Below are positions 1,582-52,822 of a stretch of DNA of 64,000 nucleotides, in pieces. Position 1 is the first letter of the stretch; each line of letters opens with the position of its first letter. The notes under the pieces are model-generated. The model had not been told where the DNA came from. It did no database searches and was given only the letters and a program-made list of their open reading frames with translations. Location of the stretch: NCBI RefSeq assembly GCF_057098645.1, contig NZ_CM169472.1; one strand, written 5' to 3'. Position numbers and translations under genes: made by a program.

Positions 1582-2377
1582 AATCATTTTCTGGTTTGTT
1601 TGAAGTTTCATTTACAGGCTGGATCACATCCTTATTAAAATGGCGCGTTTGTTCGACTTTACCTTTTCTAGAAAGGCCTGCACCTTCTAAAATTGAATCG
1701 ATTTTATCGCCACCATTAGCTAAGAAATGCTTAAAATTTTCCGATGATAACATTTCCATTATAGGCGATGAATGGGTAGCTTCTTCAACAAATCTTAATG
1801 GCGGCTCCTCCAGTCGAGTAAGTGCATTACCAAATAACCTTTGGGTAAAGTCGCTATCAAGTTGGACAGCTTCTCTTCTATATCCCTCATAAGCTTTGGA
1901 TACTGAGGCCTTGAATTCATAATCCTCTGCCAATCTGAATCGCTGACCAATTTGTTTCGTTGCTAACCAAGCAAACCATAATGGTGCTCCAACACTTAAA
2001 ATGGAGAGTAAAAGTTGAATAGCTAACTTTATACCTGATGCGTCAGGGTTTGACAGATATGCTTCGAGAGCATGTAAACGCGTATAACCAACAGCAGCAC
2101 CTGCAACCAAAGCACCTATTAGTCCACATACCCACCAACGTATGCTCCGGTTTAATTTTTCTGCTTTATCTTGAAATGCCCCAGCCAAACCTTTTGAAGT
2201 AGTAGTTCTAAATGCCTCTTCACATTTATTAATATAACCCTGAGCTTCTTCACGGAGAGATTGTAAATAATCTTTTGCATCCTTGCTTGCATTCTGTTTC
2301 AGCGCCAAAATTTCTTGTCTGGCCTCATCTACGATTTTGGAGTTCTCTTCAGTCTCTTTAAGGGTAATGACTCCAAC

Positions 2378-3075: not shown

Positions 3076-3840
3076 TGGAGCACCTCAAAAACACCATCAT
3101 ACACTAAATCAGTAAGTTGGCAGCATCACCTCTTTAAGCATGCCATTAATATTTCTGCAATGCTCAACTGCGCTATTGTAAACATTTTTAACTTCATCAT
3201 TTGTTTCACGAAGCATTTTTACTGTTGTCGGTAGATTCTCGGCTGCATCATATGCTTCATTTATAGTTTTAATTTTCTCTTCTATATTACCAGTTTCAGC
3301 TGCAATTGCAGATATACCTGAATTATATAATTCTAATCTGCGTAAAATTTGCTTTGGTAATAAATTTCTATCTTTCAGCCTCTCAAATGAAAAAAGGTCA
3401 TTAATCCTATGAGAGATATATAACATTGAAATAACATAAGATGGTATAGCGGTCTGTTGAACTGATGCGTTACCATTGTTTATATGATTAATATTTTGCT
3501 GAGCATGATCCAGAGTGTAAATGAGCGCATCAATTACTGCAATGTCATCTGAAGATGGTACAAATTCCTGCATCTGATTAATTCTATCAGATAACATTTT
3601 TGGTAGTTCTATCAGATCCTCTTTATGTAAAAAAGGAAATGTGTACGGCCCAAGGTTTATAAAATCTTCCACAGGGAATACAAGACCATTAAGTGTTGTA
3701 TGTAAATTATCTAGTTTCTCTTTTAATTCAGTTAGTTTTTCGTTCATTAAAAAAATCCTTTATGACGCTATAGAACTTCCAGAGTAATCCGATAAAGATA
3801 TCATAAGACAATATTTTGGTATAAACACTTATTGCGCGCG

Positions 3841-3859
3841 CTCGTATCCCCGCCACGCC
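3841..3859. other. Candidate P2/186-type cos (cohesive end) sequence
   Basis: Reverse complement reads ggcgtggcggggatacgag. The first 13 nt match my recollection of the 186 cohesive end GGCGTGGCGGGGA. Its position between Q and A is as in P2-like genomes. Confidence 0.5.
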
Positions 3860-3904
3860 TGCCCGCTTTATGTAGTGGTTTTCATGCACCTGCATGATCT
3901 ACGC

Positions 3905-3928
3905 AAAAGCCCGCCAGAACTGGCGGGC
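3905..3928 (-). terminator. Intrinsic terminator downstream of lipoprotein gene
   Basis: gcccgccag/ctggcgggc stem followed by a T-run on the minus strand. Confidence 0.5.
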
Positions 3929-4032
3929 CTTAACACAAAAGATCCTCAAACGATCATGCGATCTCATGCAGCATAGACATGCGCGCTTATGCAGAATGTG
4001 CAAAATCGTAACATACTCAGTAAGCGTGAAAA

Positions 4033-4710
4033 CTAGAACGTGACAGCCTTGTCAAAGCCAGAAATAATTGTATAAGAAATAGACGAGTTATCAGCCTTGT
4101 TCACTTTGAACTTGGCACCTTTGTAAGCGATAACGTCACTTCCCTTAGAATCTACAGAAAAATCTGTTGTAAATGCTGCACGAGCCATATCGTTTGCAAA
4201 TTCACGATAGGTGAACTTCATTACACCGCCTGCATTTCCATTGTATTCGATAGTCTTAACCAATGAGTTACTAACTCGACACAGCCCATCAGGAACACGT
4301 TTGATAGAAATTTCTGATGCAGTATAAGAAGTACCATTTGGCGGTGATATCTCATTTTTTGCAGCATCGTAACTAACATAATCAACATAGTTACCGATTT
4401 GCCCATAGAGATTTTTTAACGCAACAGCTTGAGGGTTATGATAATTGCGGTAAATTCCATTCCCCTCACTGCAATATGTACCAGCAGCGATAGAAGACAA
4501 TGCACCATTAGCCGCACCAAGTTCTAGTACGTCCGTTTTAAATCCAGTAGCAGATGTGATAATGGGATCGCCCATGTAGGCGGTAGCACTTTGCCCAATA
4601 GCAGGCTTCACCACTTCAATAGCAGTGATATTTCGGTTAGAAGCATGTGGCACGCAACCAGTTAGGATTACAGCAAGAGATATTGGTAACGCTACATTAT
4701 TAATTTTCAT
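4033..4710 (-). CDS. Predicted lipoprotein, unknown function (prophage cargo)
   Basis: Start MKINNVALPISLAVILTGC with lipobox LTGC. 225-aa ORF with no family recognised. Confidence 0.65.
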   Translation of the reverse strand: MKINNVALPISLAVILTGCVPHASNRNITAIEVVKPAIGQSATAYMGDPIITSATGFKTDVLELGAANGALSSIAAGTYCSEGNGIYRNYHNPQAVALKNLYGQIGNYVDYVSYDAAKNEISPPNGTSYTASEISIKRVPDGLCRVSNSLVKTIEYNGNAGGVMKFTYREFANDMARAAFTTDFSVDSKGSDVIAYKGAKFKVNKADNSSISYTIISGFDKAVTF

Positions 4711-46228: not shown

Positions 46229-46279
46229 TACCTACAGGTAAACAAAAGTCAATACCCTTGGGTTGTTTACCTTGCGGTA
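46229..46279. promoter_or_regulatory. Three OR-type operators (TACC-N4-GGTA family)
   Basis: tacctacaggta (46229), tacccttgggtt (46253) and taccttgcggta (46268), between the divergent cro-like and repressor genes. Confidence 0.5.
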
Positions 46280-46299
46280 ATCGCATCTATTATTTACCT

Positions 46300-46719
46300 A
46301 TGGACAAATATGAATTTAGACGACAACAACTCATCAAAATTCGTGATGAGAAATGCGATGGTAAAGCGGTTAACGTGGCCAGAAAGATCGGTCGCGAGCC
46401 TTCTTATGTATCAAGAATGTTGTACCCAGAGGGGAAAAAAGGAAAAAAACGGATCGCTGATGATATGGTGGAGATTATAGAAGAGTCCTTTGGGTTACCC
46501 CGGGGATGGATGGATGGTATCGTTTCATCATCAACGAACACAGCCTCCAATTATGAAACAAGGGTTCTAACGCCACGACAACGTATTTTTTTAGATCTCT
46601 TAGACGAACTGCCAGAAAGTGAAGCGGATAACTTATTAAAAACTCTTGAAGAGAAAAAACAGTATTACAATATGATCTACGAAGAAATCCGTAAAAAGAA
46701 AGCACAAAACGCATCATAA
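46300..46719 (+). CDS. Prophage immunity repressor (DicA-related C terminus)
   Basis: MDKYEFRRQQLIKIRDE.. HTH ..VNVARKIGREPSYVSRML.. The C part ..LDLLDELPESEADNLLKTLEE.. resembles the DicA tail. Confidence 0.65.
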   Translation: MDKYEFRRQQLIKIRDEKCDGKAVNVARKIGREPSYVSRMLYPEGKKGKKRIADDMVEIIEESFGLPRGWMDGIVSSSTNTASNYETRVLTPRQRIFLDLLDELPESEADNLLKTLEEKKQYYNMIYEEIRKKKAQNAS

Positions 46720-46762: not shown

Positions 46763-46799
46763 TACCCATGGGTATTTACTTTTTAAATACCCACGGGTA
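46763..46799. promoter_or_regulatory. Two OL-type operators
   Basis: tacccatgggta (perfect palindrome, 46763) and tacccacgggta (46788), downstream of the repressor gene. Confidence 0.5.
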
Positions 46800-46985: not shown

Positions 46986-47138
46986 ATGGATACTATCGAT
47001 CTTGGCAACAGCGAATCTCTGGTATGCGGCGTGTTTCCCAACCAGGACGGTACGTTTACCGCGATGACGTATACCAAAAGTAAAACGTTTAAAACCGAAG
47101 CTGGCGCGCATCGCTGGTTAGCAAGAAACTCCGACTGA
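46986..47138 (+). CDS. ydfA: YdfA-like small protein
   Basis: MDTIDLGNSESLVCGVFPNQDGTFTAMTYTKSKTFKTE.. matches K-12 Qin YdfA. Confidence 0.7.
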   Translation: MDTIDLGNSESLVCGVFPNQDGTFTAMTYTKSKTFKTEAGAHRWLARNSD

Positions 47139-47149
47139 TGAGGTTGACG

Positions 47150-47788
47150 ATGGAATTTAAAGATTTACCTCCTTCAATCCAGGAGATTGCAGCACACACA
47201 CTTCGTCATCGTCTGAACGAACTTGAATTGGAATCGGTAACGAAAAAAGACACTGATAATATGGCTCGTAATGTGCGCGATGCGTTTACCGGATTGTATT
47301 TCTGTGCGTCTATAAATAAACACGACTCAGAGAGTGTGGCAAATAAAATTGCAGAAACGACAGCGCAAAACATCAATACGAAACCAACGGAAGAAGAAAT
47401 TGATCAGTTTGCTCATGATGCTGGTTTAAAAAACAAGAAAGAAAAATCGCCATATGCGGGGAACATGTTTGTTTATGACAATCTCATCAGAATTCGTGGC
47501 GAAATTCCGGCGGAATACCTGGCAAGAGTCCATCAGGCATTGCTTAAAAATTTGGAAACAGAATTATTTGATGGCAACACTAACGGTTTCTTCATGGTAT
47601 CAGGCCTTGATAAAGACTGGGATGCAGAAAAACGCTGGAATGTTGCTACATGGTTATTCAGTAACAGAGCCGCTGCACTGGAAGCTTCGGCATGTATTTG
47701 CGGCCTGTTCTTAACAGACCACAAATATAATCTGGATGTGTACAGTTATATTTACGCTGAACACGGTCCACTCTGGATTGACTGGTAA
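47150..47788 (+). CDS. Hypothetical early-left protein (212 aa), family not recognised
   Basis: MEFKDLPPSIQEIAAHTL.. with RBS gaggt. Occupies the place of Qin ydfB/ydfC. Confidence 0.5.
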   Translation: MEFKDLPPSIQEIAAHTLRHRLNELELESVTKKDTDNMARNVRDAFTGLYFCASINKHDSESVANKIAETTAQNINTKPTEEEIDQFAHDAGLKNKKEKSPYAGNMFVYDNLIRIRGEIPAEYLARVHQALLKNLETELFDGNTNGFFMVSGLDKDWDAEKRWNVATWLFSNRAAALEASACICGLFLTDHKYNLDVYSYIYAEHGPLWIDW

Positions 47789-47998
47789 TTATAAGGAAAC
47801 ACCAGCAGGGCCGCGGCGACCAACAGAACGATTAAAATCAATAATGCCATTATAAAGGACATTATTTAATTTATCGTCGAATGCTGATTCTGTGAGCCTC
47901 AACTCTGAATGAGTTTTTAATAACCCTGATTGCCTGAGTTGATTTACCAGGCATTCAATCTGTTTTTCAATAAGCGGATTTCTTTTTTTGTTTGGCAT
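47789..47998 (-). CDS. Hypothetical 69-aa protein convergent with the previous gene
   Basis: RBS ggagga 5 nt before the ATG. Its stop codon abuts the stop of the plus-strand gene with zero spacing. Confidence 0.4.
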   Translation of the reverse strand: MPNKKRNPLIEKQIECLVNQLRQSGLLKTHSELRLTESAFDDKLNNVLYNGIIDFNRSVGRRGPAGVSL

Positions 47999-48349
47999 TT
48001 TATCCTCCATTGAGGTTCTGGGTTAAAAATGGAGACCAACACGCTGTCACGTGTGGTCGTGCGCCGGACACGGATAAGAATCCGGTACTGACAGTTTACT
48101 GAAAGGATATTTCCCTGAAAAGTCAGGGCATAACGCGAAAGCGTACGGCGAAGCTCTTTCCCTTAGAAGGCTTGTCGTTAGATTTCTTCGAACGTGCGCT
48201 TCCGGTTGTGGCACTCCGCGAAATGGCGCGGCGGTAAGTATGGCGGGGTTATTCCTTCCCCGTTGAGGACACCGGGTTGTCAGGTTGACCATACGCTTAA
48301 GTGACAATGAACCGCCCCGGGTTTCCTGGAGAGTGTTTTATCTGTGAAC

Positions 48350-49240
48350 TCAGGCTGCCAGATCATCGTTTCCGATGGAAGCATAATAAGCTTTTTCTGC
48401 TTCTGCCGGAGGAGTATGGCCCAGCCTTTCCAGCAATCGTCGATTGTTATACCAGTCCACCCACGTGAGTGTGGCCAGTTCCACTTCTGCACGGTTTTTC
48501 CAGCTCTTACGGTGTATTACCTCCGCTTTGTAAAGACCATTGATGCTCTCCGCCATCGCGTTGTCATACGAGTCGCCTGTACTTCCTGTTGATGCCAGTA
48601 ATCCGGCTTCCTTAAGCCGCTGTGTGTAGGCCAGCGATACATACTGAGAACCTTTATCACTGTGATGGACCGTGCCGGACGGTCGACGGGCCCATAACGC
48701 CTGCTCCAGTGCATCCAGCACGAATGTCGTCTCCATGGACGATGAGACCCGCCACCCCACAATGTATCCGGCAAACACATCAATGATGAACGCCACATAG
48801 ACGAAGCCCTGCCATGTGCTGACGTAAGTAAAATCAGCCACCCACAGCTGGTCAGGTCGTTCTGCCACGAACTGACGGTTTACGCGGTCGCCTGCGGCAA
48901 CGGCTTTCCGGCTGATGGTCGTACGGACCTTTTTACCCCGGAGAACACCGGCAAGTCCCATAACCGCCATGAGACGTGCCACAGTGCATCTGGCCACTCT
49001 GATACCTTCCCGTAACAACTGACGCCAGACTTTACGCACACCGTATACCTTGTGATTTTCATCGTATACGCGCTGTATCTCTTTCTTCAGCCAGTCATCG
49101 CGCTGCGCACGGGCACTGCGTTTATCCGGATGATGTCGCTGTTGCTGACAGTGGTAATACGTTGACGGGGCAATATGCAGTTCGCTGCATAGCGGTCCGA
49201 CCCCGTACTGCTCACGCAGCTTATCCAGCAGTGGCATCAT
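48350..49240 (-). CDS. IS629 OrfB
   Basis: 296 aa, a few substitutions relative to copy 1. Confidence 0.9.
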
Positions 49241-49563
49241 TTTTTCCAGAGGCGGTCGAACTCCGCCTTCGCAAAATAAGCGGAAGCCTGGCGAAGGATA
49301 TCGTTACTGCGGCGCAGTTCACGATTTTCACGCTCCAGCTCTTTCAGACGCTGACGTTCAGCGGTGGTGAGCCCTCCATCACCGCCCCCGGTATCCCGCT
49401 CATGCTGGCGAACCCAGACACGCAGAGTCTCCGGCGTACAGCCAATCTTTGGAGCAATGGAACAAATTGTCGCCCATTGTGAGTCATATTCGCCCTGACT
49501 TTCCAGAACCATACGGACTGCCCGTTGACGGACTTCAGGGGAAAAACGAGTATTTTTAGTCAT
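49237..49563 (-). CDS. IS629 OrfA
   Basis: 108 aa, a few substitutions relative to copy 1. Confidence 0.9.
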
Positions 49564-49647
49564 CCTGTTTACCTCTTTCTCAGGAAGTTTAGTCTCCAGG
49601 ATTCCCGGGGCGGTTCACAACCCCGCTGCAACGCCCTCTGTTATCAA

Positions 49648-49706
49648 TTTTCTGGTGACGTTTGGCGGTATCAGTTTTACTCCGTGGCTGCTCTGCCGCC
49701 CTTTTT
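49648..49706 (+). ncRNA. dicF: DicF small RNA (ftsZ-targeting) with its terminator
   Basis: tttctggtgacgtttggcggtatcagttttactccgtggctgctctgccgccc+ttttt, one mismatch to the recalled K-12 DicF. Followed by dicB as in Qin. Confidence 0.8.
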
Positions 49707-49881: not shown

Positions 49882-50070
49882 ATGGAAACGTTATTACCAA
49901 ACGTTAATACGTCTGAAGGTTGTTTTGAAATTGGTGTCACTATCAGTAACCCTGTATTTACTGAAGATGCCATTAACAAGAGAAAACACGAACGGGAGCT
50001 ATTAAATAAAATATGCATTCTTTCAATGCTGGCCCGTTTACGTCCGATACAAAAAGGATGCTGGCAATGA
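49882..50070 (+). CDS. dicB: Cell-division inhibitor DicB
   Basis: METLLPNVNTSEGCFEIGVTISNPVFTEDAINKRK.. matches K-12 DicB (62 aa). Confidence 0.85.
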   Translation: METLLPNVNTSEGCFEIGVTISNPVFTEDAINKRKHERELLNKICILSMLARLRPIQKGCWQ

Positions 50071-50258
50071 ATACAGCATTTGCACTTGTTCTGACAGTTT
50101 TTCTTGTTTCCGGAGAGCCAGTTGATATTGCAGTCAGTGTTCACAGGACAATGCAGGAGTGTGTAACTGCAGCAACCGAACAGAAAATTCCCGGTAACTG
50201 TTACCCGGTCGATAAAGTTATTCACCAGGATAATAACGAAATCCCGGCAGGTCTTTAA
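50067..50258 (+). CDS. ydfD: YdfD-like lysis/membrane protein
   Basis: MNTAFALVLTVFLVSGEPVDIAVSVHRTMQEC.. matches Qin YdfD. ATGA overlap with dicB. Confidence 0.8.
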   Translation: MNTAFALVLTVFLVSGEPVDIAVSVHRTMQECVTAATEQKIPGNCYPVDKVIHQDNNEIPAGL

Positions 50259-50350: not shown

Positions 50351-52822
50351 ATGAGTAAAGTCTTTATTTGCGCCGCCATTCCGGACGAACAGGCAATAAA
50401 GGAAGAAGGTGCAGTCGCTGTAGCCACTGCCATTGAAGCCGGTGATGAATGTCGCGCCCGCGCAAAATTTCACTGGCAATTCCTGGAACATTATCCGGCT
50501 GCTCAGGACTGCGCTTATAAATTTATTGTCTGCGAGGATAAACCTGGCATACCCCGCCCTGCCCTCGATTCATGGGATGCTGAATATATGCAGGAAAACC
50601 GCTGGGATGAGGAGTCTGCTTCTTTTGTCCCGGTTGAGACTGAATCCTATCCGATGAACGTCACTTTTGACAAGCTGGCCCCTGAAGTACAGAACGCTGT
50701 CATGGTTAAGTTCGACACATGTGAAAACATCACCGTTGATATGGTTATTAGCGCACAGGAATTGTTGCAGGAAGACATGGCAACATTCGACGGACATATC
50801 GTTGAAGCGTTGATGAAAATGCCAGAAGTTAACACCATGTATCCGGAGCTTAAGTTGCACGCCATTGGGTGGGTTAAGCATAAATGTATTCCTGGTGCTA
50901 AATGGCCCGAAATTCAGGCAGAGATGCGCATCTGGAAAAAACGTCGCGAAGGTGAACGCAAGGAAACCGGAAAATACACGTCTGTTGTTGATCTCGCCCG
51001 CGCCAGAGCCAATCAACAGTACACTGAAAATTCAACAGGAAAAATCAGCCCGGTCATTGCTGCCATTCATCGCGAATACAAGCAGACATGGAAAACACTG
51101 GATGACGAACTGGCCTACGCTCTCTGGCCTGGTGATGTGGATGCCGGAAACATTGACGGCAGCATCCATCGCTGGGCAAAAAATGAAGTTATCGACAACG
51201 ACCGCGAAGACTGGAAGCGTATCTCGGCATCAATGCGCAAACAGCCTGATGCCCTTCGCTACGACCGCCAGACTATTTTTGGCCTTGTCCGTGAACGTCC
51301 GATCGACATTCACAAAGACCCTGTGGCACTGAACAAATACATTACTGAATACCTGACTACAAAGGGCGTGTTTGAAGATGAAGGAACAAATCAGAGCGCA
51401 ACTGATACTCTCTCGTCGCCAGTACCAGAAACTGATGCAGTGGAAACTGAGGTATCTGATATCCCAAAAAATGAAACCGCGCCGGAAGCTGAACCATCTG
51501 TAGAGCGTGAGGGGCCGTTCTACTTCCTCTTCACCGACAAGGATGGCGAAAAATACGGTCGCGCAAACAAACTTTCTGGTCTGGATAAGGCGCTGTCTGC
51601 TGGGGCTACTGAAATCACGAAAGAAGAATATTTCGCCCGCAAAAACGGTACATACTCAGGTTCACAACAAAATACTGGTGCATCTGACACGACCGCACAA
51701 CCAGGGTCAGTAAAAGTTACCGCTGACGAAGTAAACAAAATTATGCAGGCAGCCAATATCAGCCAGCCTGACGCCGATGAACTGCTTGCAGTATCACGTG
51801 GTGAATTTGTTGAAGGGATTAGCGACCCGAATGATCCGAAATGGGTTAAGGGGATCCAGACCCGCGATTCTGTGAACCAGAACCAGCAAGAAACGGAACA
51901 GAACGACCAGAAAGCGGAACAAAACAGCCCAAATACGCAACAAAACGAGCCAGAAACGAAACAACCTGAACCAGTAGTGCAACAGGAACCGGAAAAGATC
52001 TGCACCGCCTGCGGTCAGAGCGGTGGCGGCAACTGCCCTGATTGTGGTGCGGTGATGGGTGAGGCAACATACCAGGAAATATTCGATGGAGAGAATCAGC
52101 CTGAAGTTCAGGAAAATGATCCGGAGGAAATGGAAGGCACTGCGCATCAGCACAAGGAGAACACTGGCGGCAATCAGCATCATGCCAGCGATAGTGAAAC
52201 TGGCGAGGCGTCAGATCCCTTAATTAAGGCGAACGGTCATCATAATCTCACATCCACCAGCAGAGCGGGGATTCATCTGATGATCGACCTTGAAACCATG
52301 GGAAAAAATCCCGATGCCCCGATTATCTCAATAGGTGCAATATTTTTCGATCCGCAAACCGGAGATATGGGACCGGAATTTAGTAAGACTATCGATCTGG
52401 AAACTGCTGGCGGAGTCATTGATCGGGACACCATTAAATGGTGGCTTAAGCAATCACGCGAAGCGCAATCTGCCATTATGACCGATGAAATCCCGTTAGA
52501 TGATGCACTGTTACAATTGCGGGAATTTATCGACGAAAACTCCGGTGAATTTTTTGTTCAGGTCTGGGGAAATGGAGCCAACTTCGACAACACGATTTTG
52601 CGCCGTTCATACGAACGGCAGGGGATCCCCTGCCCGTGGCGTTACTACAACGATCGCGATGTACGCACAATCGTTGAGCTGGGGAAAGCCATAGACTTCG
52701 ATGCCAGAATGGCTATTCCATTCGAAGGTGAGCGCCATAATGCACTTGATGACGCCCGTTACCAGGCAAAATACGTTTCAGTTATCTGGCAAAAACTGAT
52801 CCCGAGTCAGGCTGATTTTTAA
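50351..52822 (+). CDS. ydfE: Full-length YdfE-like protein with C-terminal DEDDh 3'-5' exonuclease domain
   Basis: The N-terminal ~300 aa match the recalled K-12 YdfE fragment. The C terminus has DLET, NGANFD and HNALDDA exonuclease motifs. CTACG..8 aa..CPDCG zinc ribbon. Confidence 0.7.
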   Translation: MSKVFICAAIPDEQAIKEEGAVAVATAIEAGDECRARAKFHWQFLEHYPAAQDCAYKFIVCEDKPGIPRPALDSWDAEYMQENRWDEESASFVPVETESYPMNVTFDKLAPEVQNAVMVKFDTCENITVDMVISAQELLQEDMATFDGHIVEALMKMPEVNTMYPELKLHAIGWVKHKCIPGAKWPEIQAEMRIWKKRREGERKETGKYTSVVDLARARANQQYTENSTGKISPVIAAIHREYKQTWKTLDDELAYALWPGDVDAGNIDGSIHRWAKNEVIDNDREDWKRISASMRKQPDALRYDRQTIFGLVRERPIDIHKDPVALNKYITEYLTTKGVFEDEGTNQSATDTLSSPVPETDAVETEVSDIPKNETAPEAEPSVEREGPFYFLFTDKDGEKYGRANKLSGLDKALSAGATEITKEEYFARKNGTYSGSQQNTGASDTTAQPGSVKVTADEVNKIMQAANISQPDADELLAVSRGEFVEGISDPNDPKWVKGIQTRDSVNQNQQETEQNDQKAEQNSPNTQQNEPETKQPEPVVQQEPEKICTACGQSGGGNCPDCGAVMGEATYQEIFDGENQPEVQENDPEEMEGTAHQHKENTGGNQHHASDSETGEASDPLIKANGHHNLTSTSRAGIHLMIDLETMGKNPDAPIISIGAIFFDPQTGDMGPEFSKTIDLETAGGVIDRDTIKWWLKQSREAQSAIMTDEIPLDDALLQLREFIDENSGEFFVQVWGNGANFDNTILRRSYERQGIPCPWRYYNDRDVRTIVELGKAIDFDARMAIPFEGERHNALDDARYQAKYVSVIWQKLIPSQADF

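Follow-up and report, generated by a model that had tools for sequence, protein, structure and literature searches.

A convergently encoded two-protein cassette in a polymorphic slot of the dicBF early operon of Qin-like prophages

The 64,000-nucleotide (nt) stretch of contig NZ_CM169472.1 (RefSeq assembly GCF_057098645.1) analyzed here, referred to below as the window, holds a Qin-like lambdoid prophage. In its dicBF early operon, two open reading frames (ORFs) face each other in the interval from the ydfA-like gene to the dicF leader: ORF A (47150-47788, plus strand, 212 amino acids (aa)) and ORF B (47789-47998, minus strand, 69 aa). Together they form an uncharacterised and widespread two-protein cassette that is encoded convergently and represents one allele of a polymorphic slot in the operon. 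An earlier account made from the DNA letters alone (the sequence-only reading) had drawn attention to the two ORFs; the present analysis adds that the unit consists of the C-terminal domain of A together with B, that the locus is polymorphic, and that its small ORFs have a common leader. We consider it probable that the C-terminal domain of A and the B protein are a functionally coupled pair.

The stop codons of A and B touch (TAA at 47786-47788, TTA at 47789-47791) and the scan found no terminator-like site between them, which confirms the zero gap at 47788|47789 and the missing terminator described in the sequence-only reading. Its strong ribosome-binding site for the small ORF was also found, as a Shine-Dalgarno sequence GGAGGA (48003-48008) located 4 nt ahead of the ATG. 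In-frame ATG codons further upstream, at 47138 for A and at 48010 for B, would extend the proteins to 216 and 73 aa, respectively; for A both the annotation pipeline PGAP and PHROG choose 47150. In RefSeq the two are hypothetical proteins WP_000394546.1 (A) and WP_001133037.1 (B), equivalent to ECs_2211 and ECs_2212 of prophage Sp11 of O157 Sakai. Both match families of unknown function from end to end, A with PHROG 2151 (residues 1-212 of 212, E 2.7e-147) and B with PHROG 4274 (residues 1-69 of 69, E 1.4e-51). No match to either protein was obtained in Pfam, NCBIfam or PADLOC v2 (E <= 1 for all three) or in PDB sequences, alignments included. This agrees with the proposal that the 212-aa ORF carries no recognisable domain, and the profile searches likewise place A outside the known lambdoid accessory families with a function. 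As judged from such profiles, the pair belongs to no known toxin–antitoxin (TA) or defence family.

The ratio of nonsynonymous to synonymous substitution rates (dN/dS) was determined by setting the window copies against diverged E. coli and Salmonella copies. It is 0.14-0.21 for the C-terminal domain of A (dS 0.50-0.65) and 0.19-0.28 for B (dS 0.31-0.60), the dS ranges of the two overlapping broadly. When all six frames of the B region are compared the annotated frame gives the lowest dN/dS, the other five giving 0.39-2.46. These values indicate that A and B are genuine coding genes under purifying selection. The B protein is basic (pI 9.7), with a grand average of hydropathy (GRAVY) of -0.53 and no hydrophobic segment, and its predicted fold consists of two helices and a conserved RRGPAGVxL tail that is disordered in the AlphaFold model. 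Codons 3-6 of B contain an A7 homopolymer (47981-47987, minus strand), which is A6 in 8 of 74 IMG/VR loci; this shifts the frame and cuts B to 17 aa. The A6 variants could reflect homopolymer sequencing errors or slipped-strand on/off variation.

An alignment of 25 homologues of A with 68-90% identity shows a mosaic N-terminal domain (N-domain), a linker, and a strongly conserved C-terminal domain (C-domain; residues ~100-212, 47447-47785 of the window). The N-domain covers the first ~57 residues and is represented by about three types among these homologues. An exhaustive hidden Markov model search of 1.84 billion representative proteins gave 49 matches, nearly all of them to the N-domain only, which is joined to many unrelated C-termini, often in short phage proteins. 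Among isolated phages (50,697 records, tblastn) only the N-domain of A finds matches, and B none. Pfam domains were found neither in any tested N-domain protein nor in any of the C-termini, and a secretion or delivery domain or recognised toxin domain was not among them. Recombination inside A is visible (alignment, P0006). The N-terminal helical domain of ~55 aa is a common recombining head that also occurs on other C-termini. The C-domain was found elsewhere only in Salmonella proteins (P0176, P0188 and the L007 protein), where it is attached to another N-domain (MFNVKRNG...) with or without an inserted HTH_3 domain. A possible identity of P0188 was considered, since STM14_3220 (663 bp, 220 aa) has the same length and the STM14_3218-3220 region of Gifsy-1 is required for RtcR activation (PMC9879122). 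This lead was abandoned: the P0188 cluster has two members and no such tag, the identity was not established, and no inference towards an RNase was drawn.

The two genes are found together with great regularity. In 5,426 complete E. coli genomes, C-domain DNA is present in 599 (750 places) and B in 596 (743 places), so the co-occurrence check suggested with the sequence-only reading shows the ORFs to be conserved together. All 74 IMG/VR loci found with B have the C-domain convergent and adjacent, and the stops abut in 71 of them; other versions, allelic or remote, have 3' ends that overlap by 11-33 nt. A C-domain that forms an ORF of its own (~126 aa) and abuts a B of 77% identity occurs in one type of Salmonella prophage. 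A second Salmonella group has proteins of 203-307 aa in which a foreign N-domain is joined to a C-domain at 35-41% identity; opposite them lies a B homologue of 64 aa (46% identity, PHROG 4274 E 4.5e-9). The 3' ends of this remote pair overlap by 11 nt, both in L007 and in five more loci. The geometry is thus kept in Salmonella behind three different N-terminal contexts; through exchanges and losses of the N-terminal half of A, the pair has remained together. The conserved unit is the C-terminal ~115-aa domain of A plus B, rather than the whole of A. The charges of the partners are opposite: the C-domain is acidic (pI 4.9), and calculated for two homologous pairs B carries +3.6 with a C-domain of -5.9 and +4.6 with one of -4.0, the polarity being the same in Salmonella.

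The A/B pair is not the only occupant of this site. At least three unrelated pairs of a large C-terminus and a small convergent ORF exist at the locus, with a common N-domain, leader and -10 position. The type b pair (135 and 77 aa, 23-nt overlap) occurs in PPompW phages and phage Evi, and the type c pair consists of a 112- or 119-aa and a 64-aa protein with a 12- or 33-nt overlap. The halves of these pairs were found in 655 versus 649 (type b) and 152 versus 152 (type c) of the same 5,426 genomes, where the sets for types a, b and c (599, 655 and 152) were counted separately and one genome may fall in several. The 112-aa large ORF of type c (3499-3837 in L076, with equivalents in the 152 complete genomes) lacks a PGAP annotation; its small partner is annotated. 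A further distinct pair is present in Salmonella locus L008, in which the N-domain and a helix-turn-helix (HTH) are followed by another C-terminus and another small partner. Salmonella L175 has two modules in tandem, and Stx phage ArgO145 has an N-domain protein with no partner. Taken together, the alleles display a constant N-terminal region with variable C-termini and a co-varying adjacent small gene.

All small ORFs are preceded by one common minus-strand leader with three hairpins. The invariant stem of H1 (CCGGA...TCCGG, 48064-48085, minus strand) lies beside every allele and marks the right boundary of the cassette. The stem of H2 (48034-48058, minus strand) is variable and shows the compensatory variants ACACG/CGTGT, CTCCAC/GTGGAG, CCCAAC/GTTGGG and CCCGAC/GTCGGG. 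In H3 (48003-48034, minus strand), present in seven of seven leader types, an anti-Shine-Dalgarno CTCCATT (48028-48034) pairs with the AATGGAG of the Shine-Dalgarno region, which is predicted to be sequestered in this way. In ViennaRNA ensembles of the seven leader types the pairing probability of GGAGG is 0.47-1.0, with the exception of the first G of one type (0.06). The strong Shine-Dalgarno itself is kept in all alleles. A candidate promoter of B is positioned just outside H1 (48093-48121, minus strand), with -10 TAAACT (48093-48098), -35 TTTTCA (48116-48121) and a 17-nt spacer. It scores 8/12, which is under the scan threshold. Across six distinct upstream contexts a -10-like hexamer, often after TGn, stops exactly 7 nt short of H1, with equivalents present in L009, L117, L131, L175 and L008/L255. 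This positional conservation suggests an antisense promoter that points towards the 3' end of the early gene upstream. The only minus-strand promoter-like site scoring 9/12 (48026-47997) cannot serve B since it overlaps the start codon. A LexA box was not seen in the leader on inspection by eye. In L007 a second copy of the leader precedes an ORF of 155 aa (1877-2344, minus strand) that lies upstream of the B homologue and shares its strand; it has no Pfam match and resembles a membrane protein when its sequence is inspected by eye. Such a leader could serve as an expression cassette for minus-strand accessory genes in general.

A possible mechanism can be formulated on this basis, in which an early-operon effector domain and its cognate small partner are expressed in a mutually exclusive, convergent manner. 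The A protein would be made only when the DicA-like repressor is lifted, as part of the early dicBF operon. B would be produced in the lysogen from its own weak candidate promoter just outside H1, and its translation would be limited by H3 through sequestration of the Shine-Dalgarno. Because the stops abut and no terminator intervenes, each transcript must run antisense into the other gene, and with overlapping transcripts expression should be mutually exclusive. The order of events would be B in the lysogen, and A followed by DicF and DicB after derepression. The basic B protein could bind the acidic C-domain as its cognate partner, most likely acting as a lysogen-state inhibitor, a kind of safety catch or immunity-like protein, of an early-lytic effector domain. 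The locus would then be a swappable slot for several unrelated effector/partner pairs. We put this complete scheme forward as plausible but tentative, with clearly less confidence than the functional coupling itself. A bolder generalization is that Qin-like prophages have, between ydfA-C and dicF, a hypervariable hotspot of convergent effector/inhibitor cassettes, TA-like modules in which head-on transcription and a shared riboregulated leader replace the operon, and which arm early-lytic host takeover, anti-defence or exclusion while being locked in lysogeny. In this full extent we regard the proposal as doubtful.

Several observations weigh against the mechanism just described. In a lineage ending ...DWFKG, A is intact and B is deleted save for its last ~14 codons. 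Thus B is not indispensable for carrying A, nor is it an antidote that a repressed prophage must have. Co-occurrence at zero spacing is partly trivial, as most copies are at least 99% identical, and such near-identity leaves few independent evolutionary observations. Independent support comes mainly from one deep split, between the E. coli type and the Salmonella type. A test of linkage between C-domain and B variants gave no recombinants but is weak because the markers are only ~115 nt apart. Concerning the leader, the z-scores of its fold against shuffled sequences are modest (+0.35 to -2.6), and the scan found no sigma-70 site of at least 9/12 that could serve upstream of B. Furthermore, K-12 Qin and phage ArgO145 keep the -10 element and H1/H2 with no small ORF; next to ydfC in K-12 the leader remnant comprises H1, H2 and the anti-Shine-Dalgarno half only. 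The presence of H1/H2 without a small ORF implies that the leader signals may act in antisense transcription or for the operon strand as well, perhaps as their original role. Literature searches with the locus tags of A and B, with ybl81 and with sequence strings of the structured element described below returned nothing, and no expression data.

Four other explanations can be considered. In the first, the roles are reversed: B would be an exclusion or defence factor of the lysogen, in a position like that of sieB, the C-domain would serve early escape or self-immunity, and convergent transcription would silence B upon induction. The asymmetry of loss fits this, since B was never found without the C-domain (74 of 74 loci) and A is known without B, and orphan antidotes are expected more than orphan effectors. 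B also has a moron-like position and orientation within the early operon, the predicted sequestration of its Shine-Dalgarno suggests tightly restricted translation, and in L007 its homologue follows the putative membrane protein ORF on the same strand behind the same leader. On the other hand, PADLOC gave no match, a soluble 69-aa protein acting as a lone abortive or exclusion effector is without close precedent, the asymmetry stems from very few independent events, and the likeness to sieB is one of position on the lambda and Rac maps. We consider reversed roles unlikely.

A second explanation casts the A-like proteins as regulators of the early operon that bind DNA or RNA, with B as a small anti- or co-factor whose binding to the C-domain would tune DicF, DicB and the exonuclease. 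The Salmonella C-domain relatives of the P0176 type (286-315 aa) contain HTH_3, and their gene is the second after a Cox-like gene and adjoins the repressor and integrase genes. The N-domain of L008 is likewise combined with an HTH, together with another C-terminus and small partner, and the basic character of B would suit such a function. The HTH is an optional insert and for that reason cannot define the function of the pair; it is lacking in A of E. coli and in the L007 protein, and the C-domain is also found alone. A regulatory pair is, in our view, rather improbable.

We give about the same low credence to a third explanation, that A and B are uncoupled accessory genes whose joint inheritance reflects their contiguity alone, the convergent layout only insulating or attenuating read-through into the toxic dicF and dicB. 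Zero spacing leads to automatic co-inheritance, and the near-identity of most copies, the ~115-nt span of the perfect variant association and the survival of A without B are all compatible with this. What argues for coupling is that the partners remain together at 35-46% identity, through three replacements of the N-terminal half of A and even its loss. Recombination inside A does happen, and each different C-terminus has a different small partner. Finally, an antisense RNA in the style of lambda OOP acting on cII, with the 69-aa frame being incidental, would explain that the promoter-like element and H1/H2 persist in K-12 Qin and ArgO145, where they would direct transcription into the 3' end of the upstream gene, and that A and B are not separated by a terminator, but it is very improbable because the B frame has the lowest dN/dS of six, its protein can still be recognised (46% identity) in Salmonella copies whose DNA no longer aligns, and a strong Shine-Dalgarno is kept in all alleles.

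Comparison with known systems places the A/B pair near several of them and inside none. Polymorphic toxin/immunity loci resemble it in having a conserved N-terminal region with interchangeable C-termini, each with its own small neighbour, and alleles that swap at one locus. However, the partner is co-directional and downstream in those loci, whereas A and B are convergent within a prophage early operon and have no delivery domain and no recognisable toxin fold. Type II TA systems share with A/B the tight pairing of two small proteins, one acidic, one basic, the latter having a conserved tail that is probably disordered. Unlike these systems, A and B are convergent with abutting stops instead of forming an operon, match no TA profile, and can lose one partner. 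A type I TA system, with a small hydrophobic membrane peptide as toxin, and a HicA-like toxin were rejected since B is hydrophilic and there is no Pfam match. Of the suggestion in the sequence-only reading that the arrangement recalls TA or defence pairs, the convergent terminator-free geometry stands and is conserved; a TA or defence profile match was not obtained and the geometry is not that of type I or type II systems.

In lambda and Rac, sieB lies antisense inside the pL operon, and SieB is a larger membrane protein. The sieB-type morons of lambda, Rac and P22 resemble B in their opposite orientation between repressor-proximal genes and the kil/dicB region, and they would similarly be expressed while the operon is off. 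In contrast, B shows no sequence similarity to SieB, is a soluble protein of 69 aa, and co-varies with the C-domain of the convergent gene. Of the own promoter and terminator that characterize a moron, B has a weak 8/12 candidate promoter pair at a position conserved in six contexts, and a terminator was not found. Lambda OOP/cII is also a convergent unit in which the 3' ends overlap the 3' end of an early gene, and the absence of a terminator between A and B is in line with it, but the putative convergent transcript of the A/B locus encodes a conserved protein.

The order of the surrounding genes agrees with a dicBF operon, the DicA-like repressor, ydfA (DUF1391), DicF, dicB and the ydfD-like gene being co-oriented. 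The DicA-like repressor gene (46258-46719, plus strand) is the first in the early-left direction and matches phrog_5736, a transcriptional regulator (E 6.7e-70); PGAP starts it at ~46300, and its NCBIfam DicA match is weak. The region separating the repressor and ydfA-like genes contains a 16-bp inverted repeat (46763-46799, TACCCGTGGGTATTTA...TAAATACCCATGGGTA), which the scan rated as terminator-like for the minus strand and which could be a terminator of the repressor gene or an operator. The ydfA-like DUF1391 gene (46986-47138, plus strand; Pfam E 6.5e-28; longest ORF from 46905) is 91% identical to K-12 ydfA at the DNA level. Beyond the pair are the DicF small RNA (sRNA) gene (49650-49701, plus strand; Rfam RF00039, 75 bits, E 1.3e-15), dicB (49882-50070, plus strand), a DUF1482/ydfD-like gene (50013-50258) and a gene for an 823-aa exonuclease (50351-52822). 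K-12 Qin (ydfA-ydfB-ydfC-dicF-dicB-ydfD) shares DUF1391/ydfA, the dicF leader (90% identity), DicF, dicB and DUF1482 with the window but has neither A nor B. The study of dicBF leaves non-conserved genes as blanks (PMC5069750). The sequence-only reading placed the 212-aa ORF where Qin has ydfB/ydfC; a replacement of a ydfC homologue by the pair did not hold up: YdfC is unrelated to A in sequence, so that membership of A in its family was rejected, and prophages exist in which ydfB and ydfC stand ahead of this pair. Strain STEC276 carries ydfB, a ydfC-like gene, A and B together, which makes the cassette an addition to the operon and not a variant of ydfC. A ydfC-like gene coexists with the 212-aa gene in L004, where the annotation wrongly treats the complete 212-aa ORF as a partial pseudogene.

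In relatives without an insertion sequence (IS) the order is uninterrupted from A and B (minus strand) to the dicF leader and dicB. In the window an IS629/IS1203 element of the IS3 family (1310 bp, 48308-49617, minus strand) is flanked by a CAA duplication (48305-48307 and 49618-49620). It was recognized by its OrfA/OrfB ORFs, an ALIL pseudoknot (120 bits), the annotation in L002 and direct reading of its ends. The element sits 310 bp beyond the start codon of B, inside a helix of a conserved structured element, and splits the dicF leader. With the IS in place, dicF, dicB and the exonuclease gene are cut off from A, B and the early promoter, and a polar effect on expression of DicF and DicB from the operon promoter is to be expected in the window strain.

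The structured non-coding element interrupted by the IS has its 5' part at 48122-48307, 90% identical to the ydfC-dicF spacer of K-12, and the remainder at 49618-49649. Intact copies of ~190 nt lie between the small-ORF leader and dicF, for example at 7273-7490 in L001 and at 3674-3869 in the K-12 locus L006. Near-invariant blocks are retained even in Salmonella prophages whose neighbouring proteins are 35-45% identical, and the hairpins are variable with compensatory changes, 59 distinct variants occurring among the fetched loci. Folding with RNAalifold points to the operon strand (-51.4 kcal/mol, 45 pairs, 6 compensatory); the minus strand gives -40.7 kcal/mol, 34 pairs and 3 compensatory. 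A search of Rfam families and of literature strings gave no match to the element. Possibly it belongs to the DicF precursor as a structured part not described so far, and it may bear on DicF processing or control. In Salmonella, sRNA matches lie downstream of the remote pair, at 4273-4360 and 4091-4168 in L007 and at 3853-3940 and 3665-3742 in L008. There the place of DicF is taken by a C4 antisense RNA (73-75 bits) and an isrK-like match (~40 bits, below the gathering threshold), so the slot is trailed by different sRNA genes in different phages. The anti-sRNAs AgvB and AsxR lie 3' of PR' and not at the A/B locus, and a preprint on the Pas sRNA does not mention the A/B region.

If the mechanism proposed above holds, a common but ignored prophage segment of E. 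coli and Salmonella, present in strains of O157, O111, O26, O103, O121 and O145, would encode a family of matched protein pairs. The way these are expressed, tail-to-tail with no terminator and with a common leader, would differ from that of the operon-type TA and defence modules that current tools search for. The segment would then offer a new place to mine phage effectors and inhibitors, and the exchange of such pairs would explain the variability of the dicBF region. Minus-strand transcription through the cassette would oppose read-through into DicF and DicB and could thereby affect the tightness with which these division inhibitors are silenced in pathogenic strains.

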